A stretch of DNA of 11,097 nt from Candidatus Heimdallarchaeota archaeon (lineage in GTDB: Archaea; Asgardarchaeota; Wukongarchaeia; Wukongarchaeales; JBHIFL01), in NCBI GenBank assembly GCA_046761065.1, contig JBHIFL010000114.1, forward strand, positions 1-11,097. Reading direction: 5' to 3'. The notes beneath the pieces are model-generated. The model was not told the origin of the DNA. It saw only the letters and a program-made list of their open reading frames with translations, and ran no database searches. The position numbers were made by a program, and so were the translations under genes. Below are positions 4,892-10,694 of the stretch, piece by piece (within the stretch, counting starts at the first letter, position 1; each line of letters opens with the position of its first letter).

Positions 4892-5584
4892 CTAATAAAA
4901 ACATTTCATTAAACGTTTATACATATTTGGCATGTTCATAAAACTATAATAATCTAAAAAAGTCGAGATTGTCACGTAAAAATCGCTCCAATTATATGTA
5001 TGGAGTAACTCGAACATCTTTCGATTCTCCTGAGAAAACTGTTTCGAGTACGCTTCAACTACGTACCCTCACACGGAAAGAAGAAATTTATGGAAGTATT
5101 TTTTGTTAACCTAAGGAAATTTGAGATAGAGGAATTGCAACATCTTTATTATAGCATCACGCCTCCTTCCCCCTATCGCTATCCCATCTCAATGAAGGTG
5201 TATCATAAAATGCGAACCACCGCGCTTTTGGCCCATAGAGTGTGTGACCAGCTTTTTTTCCTGAATTACCCGTTTTCTTACTTCAATCACAAGATTTGCC
5301 CTTTTGAGAGTTTTGATATACCGGTAGATTGTCGAGCGTGTTTTTGGGACGGTGGTTATTTGGTTGTATCGTTCTAAGAGATCTTCAATAGCTATTGGAC
5401 CATCACGTAAGACGTGAATGAGTGGAAGATAAGCTTGTTTTTCGAAATACTGACTTTGGGGATCATTAAGTAAGATAACATTACGAATCTCGAGGAATTG
5501 TTGGATCACATCCTTGAAGGTTACATTTGTGGGCTCTGTTGAATTGCTCCACATGGGAAATGTTGGATGATATTTCTCCCGCAA
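4892..5584 (-). pseudogene. Disrupted winged-helix (ArsR-like) transcriptional regulator
   Basis: wHTH core LRDGPIAIEDLLERYN...KTRSTIYRYIKTLKRANLV. A frameshift at the A7 run (5253-5259) restores TLYGPKARWF...WDSDRGK. After a second shift near 5160, a frame with two internal stops runs to ...YKRLMKCFY* at 4892. Confidence 0.75.
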
Positions 5585-5612
5585 ATAGGGCGTTAAAGGA
5601 GATTAAAAAGGT

Positions 5613-5801
5613 TTATTTTGCCTTGGTATCCGTTAAAAGAACAGAGGCAAATCCCATATCTTCTATGATGTATTTACTTCTTGTATTCTGGCTCGTGATC
5701 ATGACGATGCCTGTCAATAAGGCCCAAGGTAGTATCATTGTTGCTATAATTTGTCACGAGACGATTAGCTTTATTGCATTCACTATGAATTACCCAAGCA
5801 T
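5613..5801 (-). pseudogene. Possible remnant of a membrane protein gene
   Basis: One frame reads MLG*FIVNAIKLIVS*QIIATMILPWALLTGIVMITSQNTRSKYIIEDMGFASVLLTDTKAK*: hydrophobic, with two in-frame stops. Confidence 0.3.
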
Positions 5802-6274: not shown

Positions 6275-7318
6275 TTAACCACTTGCAATTGAAGCTAAAG
6301 TTTCCGATAGGTGTTTCCCCTCAGGTGTGAGTTTAAAGACACTTGCTCTCGTATTGTAAAGAACTAGTCCTTTCACTTGTAAAGAGGACAAGATACTTTC
6401 TGCCAATGGAATTGTTAGATTAAGAACCTTTGAAAGTGTGACAGTTGTCAACTCATCATTGTTGTGGAAACTCAATAAAGTCATCATGCGAAAAAAGATA
6501 TCTGAAAATGTACTGAGTACACGATCTGGTTCTCTGCTCTTTCTAATGATTACTGATGCAGCTTGTCGTGTCGCATCACCTAGATCGGCTGCTGGAACCG
6601 CTCCTAGGGCTTTAAATGCTTCGGTTTCCAAAAAATCTTGGAGCTCTCGGAATTTCGGGACAAGACTCGTGATGACAACAGGCACCAGTCTCTTCTGTTG
6701 CCGGACCCATTTGTGTAATTCACCTAAGATGGCTCCTGTGGTCAAAGGAGGTACATCTTCTGTTGCGACGATCACACAATCCGCATTCTTGTAATAATGC
6801 GGCCGCAAATGGGCAAACTGTGGATCAGGTGAGCAGTGCCAGAATTGTAGGCGGACAAAATGATTCTCTTCTTGTAATAGTCCAGTAAATACATCAAAAC
6901 CGATCGTGTCCAAATAACTCCCACTCACTAAGGAACTTTCAAAGATCCCTGCCTTTCTTAGTGCCTTCCTAACCTCTGATGACCCAACAATGACAATCTT
7001 CCCAACCAAATATGGCTCTGTCGGTAAGTCTTCGGTCACCGAGATTGGTAACGATCCAATGAGTTTAAGCGCCTTCATCGAGGGTGCATAAAGCCCCCAA
7101 TCTTGCTTCTTTGCCCATTCTTCTTTCACTAGTCGTTCTAAATGCCGAGTGTACCCTCGTGAGTTACCATAACCCATAACATCGGCTAATTCGTTTGCTG
7201 TGGCTCTCCCTGTTCGCACAAGATGTAGAAAGGCTCTAGACCGATTCAACTTGCGGTTTTCAATCGCTTCAAGCGCGCTCAAAACCTCCAAGAGATCCCC
7301 AACAGAAACGCGATTCAT
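6275..7318 (-). CDS. wHTH - Rab/Ras-like pseudo-GTPase - wHTH fusion protein (putative regulator)
   Basis: wHTH at aa ~25-90 (TANELADVMG...HLERLVKEEWA...GLYAPS) and ~270-342 (LSKVLNL...ILSSLQVKGLV...FKLTPEG). Aa ~103-260 follow the small-GTPase order KIVIVG, YLDTIGFD, VRLQFW, YYKNADCVIV, VPVVI. GGGAGTG SD-like sequence before the ATG. Confidence 0.88.
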   Translation of the reverse strand: MNRVSVGDLLEVLSALEAIENRKLNRSRAFLHLVRTGRATANELADVMGYGNSRGYTRHLERLVKEEWAKKQDWGLYAPSMKALKLIGSLPISVTEDLPTEPYLVGKIVIVGSSEVRKALRKAGIFESSLVSGSYLDTIGFDVFTGLLQEENHFVRLQFWHCSPDPQFAHLRPHYYKNADCVIVATEDVPPLTTGAILGELHKWVRQQKRLVPVVITSLVPKFRELQDFLETEAFKALGAVPAADLGDATRQAASVIIRKSREPDRVLSTFSDIFFRMMTLLSFHNNDELTTVTLSKVLNLTIPLAESILSSLQVKGLVLYNTRASVFKLTPEGKHLSETLASIASG

Positions 7319-7354
7319 ACAAACACTCCCATATCTAAGAAAATATTACTCAAT

Positions 7355-7393
7355 TGACGCAAATATATGTTTTGATGTACTCAACTTGCGTCA
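7355..7393 (-). promoter_or_regulatory. Candidate promoter flanked by an 8-bp inverted repeat (TGACGCAA-N23-TTGCGTCA)
   Basis: Arms at 7355-7362 and 7386-7393 enclose the minus-strand sequence CAAAACATATATT (BRE/TATA-like). A third copy lies at 7567-7575. Confidence 0.5.
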
Positions 7394-7955
7394 TTCCAAG
7401 ATGAATCATATGGCTCTAATATCCCATCATTATTAACGAAAAAAACAAATACTTATATTAAAAAATATATTTGATAATTCAGCACATTAAAATTGTAAAA
7501 AACTATTTATAAATTTTATTTAAGCTTTTTTTCAGGAAAAAAGATCATAGAATAATTATCCTCAGATTGCGTCAAACACAATTTTGGAAATGAAAACAAT
7601 AATTTTGAATAGATTTTTTATGAATCTGTTACAGAAATCAACACTGGTGCGGTAAAGACATTAATGGTTGATATAGCCAAATTTGCATTTGATAAATTGT
7701 CCAAAAAAGTTTTATAAAGTTGTTTAATCCAGTTAAACATAAAACGAAGTGAGGAGGTAAAAGGAGTAATTATCTCTTCTTTGAGATAAAAGAGAGATAC
7801 TAAGTGAACCTGAGAGATATGAACCAAATAATATTTTTGTCGAAATCTAACCTTCTAATCGTCCAAGTGTTCAGATATGAAATCAAATGCTCCTCAAAGA
7901 AAGTACTAACCGATAACTAAATAAAGGGGAACGCAAATAGAAAGCGCAGGCTTTA

Positions 7956-8093
7956 TTGTTGGAGTCATTATCTCGAGTTGGCAAGTACAGGTATCTCAAA
8001 ACTGAGGGAGGTTTCATTTGCATCAAGGAAAAGCAGACAACTCCTTGTATACCGGGACAATTCCCTGAGTGCGAAGCCTGTGACCTCTTCTGA
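7956..8093 (+). CDS. Small 45-aa four-cysteine (putative metal-binding) protein, below the ORF-track cutoff
   Basis: TTG start; (M)LESLSRVGKYRYLKTEGGFICIKEKQTTPCIPGQFPECEACDLF*; C-x8-C-x7-C-x2-C; a T-tract follows at about 8134. Confidence 0.5.
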   Translation: MLESLSRVGKYRYLKTEGGFICIKEKQTTPCIPGQFPECEACDLF

Positions 8094-8213: not shown

Positions 8214-8516
8214 CTAAATGTGTACTTGAATCACTTTGGGGGTCTTTTCAGACACCATGACAGTATAGTCATTTTCATCCAGTTTGTAAAACTCATAAAT
8301 CCGCAGTGGAATCTCGAAAATGAGTAGATCCTTGTTCGTCCGACTGTGGATCTCTCCCTTCCAGATAGCGGTTTCATCAAAGAAGGGAATTTGTTCTGGA
8401 GCTAAGATGAAGAACTCGTTGCTTGCAACGTAGAGGATTAGTCGTTCTGAAAGTTTAGGAGCGATTTTCTTGGAGATTTTGATTTCTTTGACTTGAATTT
8501 GTTCCATGTACGTCAC
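8214..8516 (-). CDS. Hypothetical protein with two AbrB/SpoVT-like repeats (possible antitoxin or regulator)
   Basis: EIKISKKIAPKL...LILYV...FILAP and LIFEIPLRIYEFYKLDENDYTVMV each resemble the AbrB pattern xIxIPkxir-x-l-x-l-x-eGD. Start is GTG 8516, or ATG 8507 after GGGGTGA. Confidence 0.7.
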   Translation of the reverse strand: MTYMEQIQVKEIKISKKIAPKLSERLILYVASNEFFILAPEQIPFFDETAIWKGEIHSRTNKDLLIFEIPLRIYEFYKLDENDYTVMVSEKTPKVIQVHI

Positions 8517-8818
8517 CCCAGCGGCTCAACATGCCCTTTGAACAAGATCAATTCAACTATGCCATTAAACTCTTTCTTTCAAACCCAAAGGGCCGTTCGC
8601 ATTGGTTGCCCTCCTCTTTTCTGAAAGCGCATTTTAAAGATTAAAACATCCTCTTCCTGCTCATATAACTCAAGCATATATTGTGCCTTAATGAAAGAAA
8701 TGAGTTTCCACTCATTGATTCCGTTTTTTTCATGTTTATCTACCCAATGTTTCTTCAGGCGTTTCGGGATTCTAACAATGGTACGGTACCATTCCAATGG
8801 ATCACCAATCCATAACAT
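8513..8818 (-). pseudogene. Small gene interrupted by an in-frame TGA (8579-8581); possible BrnT/RelE-like toxin
   Basis: The frame continues past the TGA as KKEFNGIVELILFKGHVEPLG*, and this final TGA (8513-8515) overlaps the next gene's GTG as GTGA. KHWVDKHEKNGINEW resembles the BrnT-like KH-GI helix. Confidence 0.5.
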
Positions 8819-9534: not shown

Positions 9535-9951
9535 CTAAATTTCTTTTAAAAGACGTTCGATAAGGTTAAGAACTTTTTCGGCATCTGCCAAGGCGGGTTT
9601 AGCGGAAGGCTCGAAATACTCTACCCCAACTTCTTCTTCGAACCCATATCCCGCAAGTGCTCGTTGATCCGTTAGTCGTGCAAAGATATCTACAATCTCG
9701 GGAATAGCATCTTGAAACCAGCGAGGCAAGGTCGAGTGGGTCCTTAAGTGGAGAAATTCGTCACTGACATCGTGTACTCGTTTGAACACAAACCCTTGGC
9801 CTAACATGACTGCTTTTATCGCCTGTTCTACAGCCATCTGAGACCCATAGACCACATCATCCCAACGTTCATCTTCTACCGCGCGTTGTGCACCTTGGAA
9901 CCACCTTTGGGCTCTTTGAAACGCAAGTTGACTCTTCGTTGAATTCACCAT
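9535..9951 (-). CDS. HEPN domain protein (partner of MNT)
   Basis: SQMAVEQAIKA, FKRVHDV, LTDQRALAGYG and a C-terminal AKPALADAEKVL helix. GGAGGT SD; start overlaps the end of the upstream MNT gene. Confidence 0.92.
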   Translation of the reverse strand: MVNSTKSQLAFQRAQRWFQGAQRAVEDERWDDVVYGSQMAVEQAIKAVMLGQGFVFKRVHDVSDEFLHLRTHSTLPRWFQDAIPEIVDIFARLTDQRALAGYGFEEEVGVEYFEPSAKPALADAEKVLNLIERLLKEI

Positions 9952-10694
9952 GAGATACCTCCTGCTGTAACCCAGTATGTGGTTCCATCCAGCTTGGTTA
10001 CCTTTCGAAGCCCTTTCCGTTCATATTCCGTCCGGATCCAATCTAAAAGCTGTCTAGCTTTATTGTTCTTTTGAAAAAGAATAATATGGTCTGCCAAGAG
10101 ATCTGGATAGAAACCATGAGTCTGAAAAGCTTCGTCTTCCGACAATGGGATGTGTTGAACCCGAAAGGCTTCTTGATGGGTCTGGAGTGCCTTATGTTCC
10201 GGTGTCGCTCGCATCTGTTGTCGAATCGTCAGAAGCTCCGTGGTTCGTTCCCAGAGCGAAACGTTCCAGTTCTGTACAATAATCATGAGATCCAAGTCAC
10301 TTGTATCTGTCATGGTGCCCTTAGCGGCGGAACCGAAAAGTATCACACAAACGAGCTTTTCTCCGAAGCATTCCGTTAGAAGGTAGACATACCGAGCAAG
10401 CGCTCTTCTTAATAGCTCATTTGAGATTTTATTTTTCAGAACCGAGAAATCGGGAAAAGTAGGTGCTAAGACGGCGTGTAGGTTCTGCATCGATTGGAGC
10501 ATTGTAAGCCCTTTATCGGTTATTATATAGTTTCGTCCCTCTTTAAGGATTAAACCATATTGTCTAAGGAGCTTAAGACGTATTGACAAAGTTTTAGGGT
10601 TGATCCCAGTTTTTTCTAAGGAGCTAAAGGTCTGTTCCCTTCTTTGGGTGAGGTGAGAAAGGATGGCTCTAGAGATCTCATCTAATACCTTCAT
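9945..10694 (-). CDS. Minimal nucleotidyltransferase (MNT) with an N-terminal winged-helix domain
   Basis: wHTH FSSLEKTGINPKTLSIRLKLLRQYGLI...YIITDKG; pol-beta-type motif ILFGSAAKG...SDLDLMII (GS-x10-DxD); C-terminal DGTTYW. Confidence 0.93.
   Translation of the reverse strand: MKVLDEISRAILSHLTQRREQTFSSLEKTGINPKTLSIRLKLLRQYGLILKEGRNYIITDKGLTMLQSMQNLHAVLAPTFPDFSVLKNKISNELLRRALARYVYLLTECFGEKLVCVILFGSAAKGTMTDTSDLDLMIIVQNWNVSLWERTTELLTIRQQMRATPEHKALQTHQEAFRVQHIPLSEDEAFQTHGFYPDLLADHIILFQKNNKARQLLDWIRTEYERKGLRKVTKLDGTTYWVTAGGISW

Follow-up and report, generated by a model that had tools for sequence, protein, structure and literature searches.

What small GTPases do in the cells of Asgard archaea is an open question. 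The locus described here encodes a probable DNA-binding regulator in which selection maintains a RasL fold that no longer has its nucleotide site. The window, by which we mean the whole 11,097-nucleotide stretch of Candidatus Heimdallarchaeota contig JBHIFL010000114.1 that was analysed, carries on its minus strand an intact 347-aa ORF at 6275–7318. Pfam recognizes in it, in this order, a TrmB/MarR-like winged helix (wHTH; aa 27–72, E = 2e-5), a Ras domain above the gathering score (aa 107–210, E = 8.4e-6), and an HTH_45 wHTH (aa 278–344). This is the arrangement that the original prediction had read from the open frame, a central G domain between two winged helices. Matches to TrmB, Ras, Roc, MarR_2, and HTH_45 recur in 12 of the 12 full-length family members; in the 347-aa protein, those to TrmB, MarR_2, and HTH_45 lie below the Pfam gathering scores. 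With a TrmB score of 24.7 bits for a cut-off of 25.6, the protein is not a member of the TrmB family; Pfam finds no sugar-binding domain in it, and NCBIfam returns no match. Judged by domain matches and models, it has the architecture of a one-component regulator, a wHTH and a second domain in a single chain. The gene and its parts are:

6275..7318, minus strand: gene for the 347-aa protein, wHTH / degenerate RasL G domain / wHTH (ORF call, Pfam, family comparison, dN/dS)
7043..7318, minus strand: N-terminal winged helix, aa 1–92, probable sequence-specific DNA-binding domain (Pfam, sequence conservation, net charge)
6533..7012, minus strand: Ras-like G domain, aa 103–262, with G1, G3, G4, and G5 replaced and switch I/II conserved (Pfam, PDB matches, models)
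6278..6511, minus strand: C-terminal winged helix, aa 270–347, MarR/ArsR-like fold, divergent, neutral to acidic (model, charge)
7324..7330, minus strand: Shine-Dalgarno-like GGGAGTG ahead of the start codon, similar in relatives (sequence)

The sequence matches in the PDB are solely Rnd, Rab, and Rho GTPases, Rnd3 ranking best and Rab1 and Rab7 being among the top ones. A model of aa 98–264 (AF2, pLDDT 77) matched Rab23 with a Z score of 15.3 over 150 aligned residues and an rmsd of 3.0 (AF2 + VIA); the alignment behind it included canonical GTPases, which biases it toward the GTPase fold. A model built from the family sequences alone recovered Rab23 at Z 10.7 over aa 89–268 (VIA), and in the same model aa 270–347 matched MarR, ArsR, and PadR folds, with Z up to 12.1 for the MarR family (VIA). 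Foldseek matches of the full-length model (AdiA receiver-like, Rho) were set aside, because the model was of low confidence and the matches were weak and mixed. The Pfam Ras match and the two Rab23 matches place the middle domain in the Ras superfamily, whose G-domain fold has a six-stranded sheet and five helices, in agreement with the fold first proposed for it. The N-terminal domain was modelled with a pLDDT below 50, and its assignment as a wHTH comes from sequence evidence.

This fold has lost the motifs that bind GTP. The G1 position reads GSSEVRKA (aa 112–119), the G3 position WHCSPD (aa 160–165), and the G4 position TSLVP (aa 217–221); there is no clear G5, and the G2 Thr is retained as T138, invariant in the family. 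All these strings had been recognized from the single sequence, and the family extends them. Where active GTPases have GxxxxGK[ST] at G1, its members read GSSEVR[KE]A or GAAGVQDA; in place of DxxG, [NT]KxD, and SAK they show HCSP, TSLVP, and no SAK, without variation. The first Gly of the P-loop and His161/Cys162 are likewise invariant, and the G1 Gly and Ser/Thr are lost. Lys118 of the P-loop (AAG) is confined to this genome and results from a single-base change: each of the 11 remaining full-length sequences has an acidic residue there, Glu (GAG) in the close orthologues checked and Asp (GAT) in the distant clade. Among the 35 Ras-like ORFs of the genome, this is the only full-length one without G1, G3, and G4 together; about 25 RasL paralogues have canonical motifs. 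By dN/dS, fold match to Rab23, and motif comparison, the domain would belong to class i of the pseudoGTPases, which are defined by a GTPase fold lacking G motifs; the examples listed with that definition are eukaryotic (PMC5593906).

The Rab scaffold that had been recognized in the order RabF1 to RabF4 stands in part. RabF1, RabF2, and RabF4 are each identical at three of five positions, but RabF3 agrees at one of six only, and RabF5 at none of six. The switch II string is nearer to the RasL paralogues of this genome and to Rho/Rnd than to RabF3. As RabF3 and RabF5 fail, a specific Rab assignment is not supported, and by its motifs the domain is best described as a generic Asgard RasL. A quick tree, flagged for long-branch attraction, gave the domain no firm place with Rab or with a RasL clade. 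The stem of the family in it is long (4.4) and the crown short (0.42), a shape that would be expected if function had changed and constraint had then set in.

The family comprises 13 sequences, 12 of them full-length, in two clusters. Ten form a close cluster, whose full-length members are 90–95% identical to the 347-aa protein, one 95%-identical orthologue being labelled Candidatus Heimdallarchaeota. The other three form a distant clade, 67% identical and with the same replaced motifs. The gene is under purifying selection, with a dN/dS of about 0.1 (0.07–0.24) over its full length, 0.04–0.31 in the G domain, 0.00–0.17 in the N-terminal and 0.13–0.44 in the C-terminal winged helix. The claim that the loss of G motifs is not decay is thus upheld, both by these ratios and by the sharing of the replaced motifs with the 67%-identical clade. 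Between the two clades, whose synonymous sites are saturated, switch I is identical at 13 of 13 positions, switch II at 19 of 20, and the replaced G4 at five of five. The P-loop, the least conserved motif of the domain, is identical at three of eight positions, versus 75% for the whole domain (binomial P about 0.03). This pattern, drawn from the only two independent clades available, fits the loss of a nucleotide site together with the keeping of an interaction face.

A search of Asgard genomes for the architecture, suggested along with the original prediction, gave no full-length match in 399 other Asgard species genomes; because many of these are incomplete, we speak of "not found" rather than "absent". 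No distant or active three-domain relatives occurred among 5.8 billion clustered proteins or 1.84 billion representatives, in the named genomes searched, or in viral contigs. With 13 sequences in one small lineage, the family is probably a late lineage-specific invention and not the ancestor of a eukaryotic system.

The two winged helices differ in conservation and charge: the N-terminal domain hardly varies (74% identical between clades) and is net basic, whereas the C-terminal one is divergent (46%) and neutral to acidic. The recognition helix GYTRH..RL of the N-terminal domain is common to a stand-alone wHTH, P0046, encoded on an unrelated contig; at 36% identity, P0046 was the sole outside match to this domain in the representative search. 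Two origins of the architecture were tried and rejected. That a protein with two wHTHs in tandem, P0049 for instance, had taken up the G domain by insertion is not supported (hhalign probability 1%), and for duplication of one wHTH to give both the match was weak (probability 9%).

A candidate binding site is present in the promoter of the gene itself. The motif TGACGCAA lies upstream in seven of seven loci from both clades; the distant clade has three copies, two exact and one with a changed last base. Both clades have three upstream copies of TGACGCA, in DNA that is otherwise unalignable (0 of 3000 shuffles), and TGACGCA is the only GC-containing word that the two have in common there. No other of the 3,049 genes in the genome has at least two copies of it within 300 bp upstream. 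Each copy makes up one half of an imperfect palindrome of 17 bp, centred on a single base pair and with the consensus T[GT][AC]C[GT]CAA-N-TTG[AC]G[GT][AC]A. With this conserved palindromic element in its own promoter, the DNA-binding role originally ascribed to the protein is probable. The sites in the window, given without strand, are:

7377..7393: candidate operator 1, an imperfect palindrome of 17 bp that closely precedes a putative BRE/TATA (sequence, matrix)
7558..7574: candidate operator 2, also an imperfect palindrome of 17 bp, some 250 bp ahead of the start (sequence, matrix)
7346..7362: two tandem half-sites, between the putative TATA, placed from the sequence only, and the start, immediately downstream of the former

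When a matrix trained solely on the sites of this gene was run over the promoter of P0046, 122 bp long, it detected two sites, scoring 17.3 and 11.9 bits. The sum of the two was reached by 0 of 5000 shuffles and 0 of 3100 real upstream regions. The 17-bp frame was fixed after the P0046 promoter had been viewed by eye, so that this test is independent in its training data and not fully blind. A blind test of P0049, the third homologue of the N-terminal wHTH, was negative: its best upstream score was −0.5, with 3301 of 5000 shuffles as high, and its upstream half-sites were matched by 947 of 3000 shuffles. The palindrome is thus found in the family's own promoter and in that of one of two outside homologues. 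The P0046 promoter (L065:1200–1321) contains three evenly framed copies of the palindrome and is divergent from two small unknown genes.

A large regulon is not supported, as the 8-mer occurs genome-wide 74 times versus 71.5 expected, with no excess. Only three non-self intergenic sites score at least 17.7 bits (null mean 0.33 at 18 bits and 1.2 at 16). The best of the distant sites, L074:858–874 (C112:6057), is a perfect palindrome and lies 135 bp upstream of a gene whose product, 539 aa long, is probably a surface protein and matches Heimdall-CTERM below threshold. In three related strains, contigs can be aligned from the palindrome on but differ immediately upstream of it, and its conservation in these strains is only suggested. 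Further candidate sites are C11:21745, at a metallo-beta-lactamase-fold gene, and C33:10725.

In the close relatives, the gene order is Alba, ArgRS, a small membrane protein, a DNA methyltransferase, a 443-aa double-HTH regulator, and the 347-aa gene. The distant clade has other neighbours, with the exception of a 44-aa four-cysteine gene. Two features of the window are concerned:

4898..5669, minus strand: remnant, frameshifted and without its 5' part, of the gene for the 443-aa double-HTH regulator (comparison with related loci)
7959..8093, plus strand: divergent 44-aa four-cysteine microprotein, C-x8-C-x7-C-x2-C, unannotated (in seven of seven loci)

The neighbourhood had been described as one of broken genes. 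This is true of the 443-aa HTH and of a 101-aa gene, but ArgRS, Alba, the methyltransferase, and an MNT-HEPN pair look intact in the window. The 443-aa gene is intact in L023, L032, L033, and L034; no second copy was found in this assembly, and the covered stretch of the locus in the distant clade does not contain it. The 101-aa gene (8516–8818, minus strand) is shortened by a premature stop at 8579–8581 and is whole, and 95% identical, in L023. At 9535–10694 (minus strand) lies a wHTH-fused minimal nucleotidyltransferase with its HEPN partner, of the MNT-HEPN toxin-antitoxin type, placed differently in relatives. The 44-aa microprotein, missing from the called genes, is the only neighbour seen in both clades; it has no Pfam match and was not found in the 399 other Asgard genomes. 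It has its own conserved TATA-like element at about 7917–7924 and an invariant 12-mer before its start (7943–7954). About 100 bp upstream of that start, the 9-bp word TTTTGTCGA (plus strand, 7835–7843) is invariant in seven of seven loci, a possible second cis element. No GTPase, roadblock, or longin gene is called or annotated in any orthologous locus, nor is a gene for a GTPase regulator called nearby in any of them.

On balance, we favour an autoregulated archaeal transcription factor in which the nucleotide-dead G domain would serve as a docking surface. It is likely that the N-terminal winged helix binds the palindrome in dimeric form, with a helix on each half-site, and that the regulator thereby represses the promoter of its own gene, repression being suggested by the position of the sites on either side of the putative BRE/TATA; the regulator may additionally control a few distant genes. 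The middle domain would, just as likely, bind neither GTP nor GDP, as reported for pseudo-GTPases with all G motifs degraded (PMC5593906). Its conserved switch I/II face would, more likely than not, form a fixed protein-docking surface, where a partner would alter DNA binding or transcription. The C-terminal winged helix may be accessory, through partner contact, oligomerisation, or weak non-specific DNA contact. A bolder idea, which we hold to be unlikely, is that the dead RasL domain permanently mimics one switch state and docks regulators or effectors of the approximately 25 active RasL GTPases (roadblock, longin, or similar). Small-GTPase signalling would then directly control the transcription factor and a small regulon, the surface protein maybe included; if true, this would be a direct link from the GTPase network to transcription in an Asgard archaeon.

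A palindromic site needs a dimer, and in one-component regulators the wHTH is usually joined to a domain for ligand binding or dimerisation. The same transcription factor might use its G domain only as a dimerisation scaffold or as a sensor of a small ligand or metal (involving, e.g., His161/Cys162, Thr138, or the acidic residue found where the P-loop Lys would be), lacking both a protein partner and a connection to GTPase signalling. The strings that replace G3 and G4 do not vary between clades, which would suit a new pocket, and the conserved neighbour is a four-cysteine microprotein gene. However, the conserved positions cluster in the switch regions, which in Rab-like GTPases form the effector face (PMC4915359). 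Position 118, being Lys, Glu, or Asp, is not a fixed metal ligand. We consider this scaffold or sensor role possible, if on the unlikely side. Binding of GTP or another nucleotide without hydrolysis, as in class ii, Rnd-like proteins, would be compatible with the invariant G2 Thr and first P-loop Gly, with Rnd3 as best PDB match, and with Lys118 in this genome. Yet Rnd proteins keep the guanine motif G4 and, in the G1 alignment with the PDB match, the P-loop GK. Here, G1 is without its Gly and Ser/Thr, the 11 other full-length sequences have an acidic residue instead of the Lys, the G3 Asp/Gly, NKxD, and G5 are gone, and it is the P-loop that is least conserved, making nucleotide sensing quite improbable.

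Many winged helices bind protein, and the C-terminal one is not basic. Another regulator, for example the double-HTH neighbour of 443 aa, could bind the palindrome, the 347-aa protein being a non-transcriptional adaptor with protein-binding winged helices as in ESCRT-II or PCI complexes. This appears very improbable: the sites persist here although the 443-aa gene is broken, that gene is not in the covered part of the distant clade's locus, the same palindrome lies upstream of P0046, a stand-alone homologue of the N-terminal helix, and the fold matches are MarR, ArsR, and PadR DNA binders. A decaying GTPase fusion with no current function would agree with the two neighbouring pseudogenes of this genome. 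It is refuted by dN/dS and hardly credible, as the frame is open in all 12 full-length members and the replaced motifs are unchanged across a saturated synonymous distance.

The preferred reading, a transcription factor with a docking G domain, can be set beside several known systems. With the Asgard RasL and Rab-like small GTPases (PMC4915359; 10.1101/2024.02.28.582541; PMC10933270), the protein shares the fold, the switch I/II sequence and, partly, RabF1, RabF2, and RabF4; it differs from them in the replaced G1, G3, G4, and G5 and in the position of the G domain between two winged helices. The fusion partners that Tran et al. name for Asgard GTPases are longin and roadblock domains (PMC10933270), and HTH terms are absent from the main texts of Tran et al. 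(PMC10933270) and of Vargova et al. (10.1101/2024.02.28.582541), who did not recover Asgard sequences as sister to Rab. Eukaryotic pseudoGTPases likewise combine a Ras-like fold with degraded G motifs and a presumed role as interaction module; however, they are not transcription factors, and in pG1 five of five motifs are degraded, whereas switch I/II is best conserved here. Archaeal one-component wHTH regulators of TrmB, MarR, and ArsR folds have the same N-terminal wHTH, a palindrome beside the TATA box, and probable autoregulation, but the second domain here has a G-domain fold instead of a sugar- or ligand-binding one, and a C-terminal wHTH is added. A tie between a prokaryotic small GTPase and transcription was proposed by Wuichet and Sogaard-Andersen for group 3 MglA loci with a receiver-wHTH neighbour (PMC4316618). 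There, GTPase and regulator are separate, whereas here a dead RasL-type domain is fused into the regulator.

A literature search over papers open without subscription found no description of a wHTH/RasL/wHTH architecture, which, with the lack of an NCBIfam match, accords with the original view that this is not a described family. It looks like an undescribed one-component regulator that contains a pseudo-GTPase domain and for which a binding site can be predicted. Its reach is limited to 13 sequences in one small lineage; the predicted 17-bp site makes DNA binding, nucleotide binding, and partner control testable in vitro with one small protein.

Small GTPases occur in other fusions as well. 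On contig C51 of the same genome (L035:1239–2621, minus strand), an Arf-like GTPase ends in an archaeal histone fold (E = 7.8e-11 for Pfam CBFD_NFYB_HMF), so that this genome has a further GTPase joined to a DNA-binding domain; its gene sits in a cluster of about seven small-GTPase genes. In genome G007 (L018:31–1791, minus strand), a Rab-like GTPase with an intact P-loop is fused to an M20 peptidase. Genome G002, of the same order, encodes a RasL GTPase with intact motifs (L038:8–1039, minus strand), followed by a coiled coil and a winged helix of PCI type, as far as these can be judged by eye and without Pfam support.
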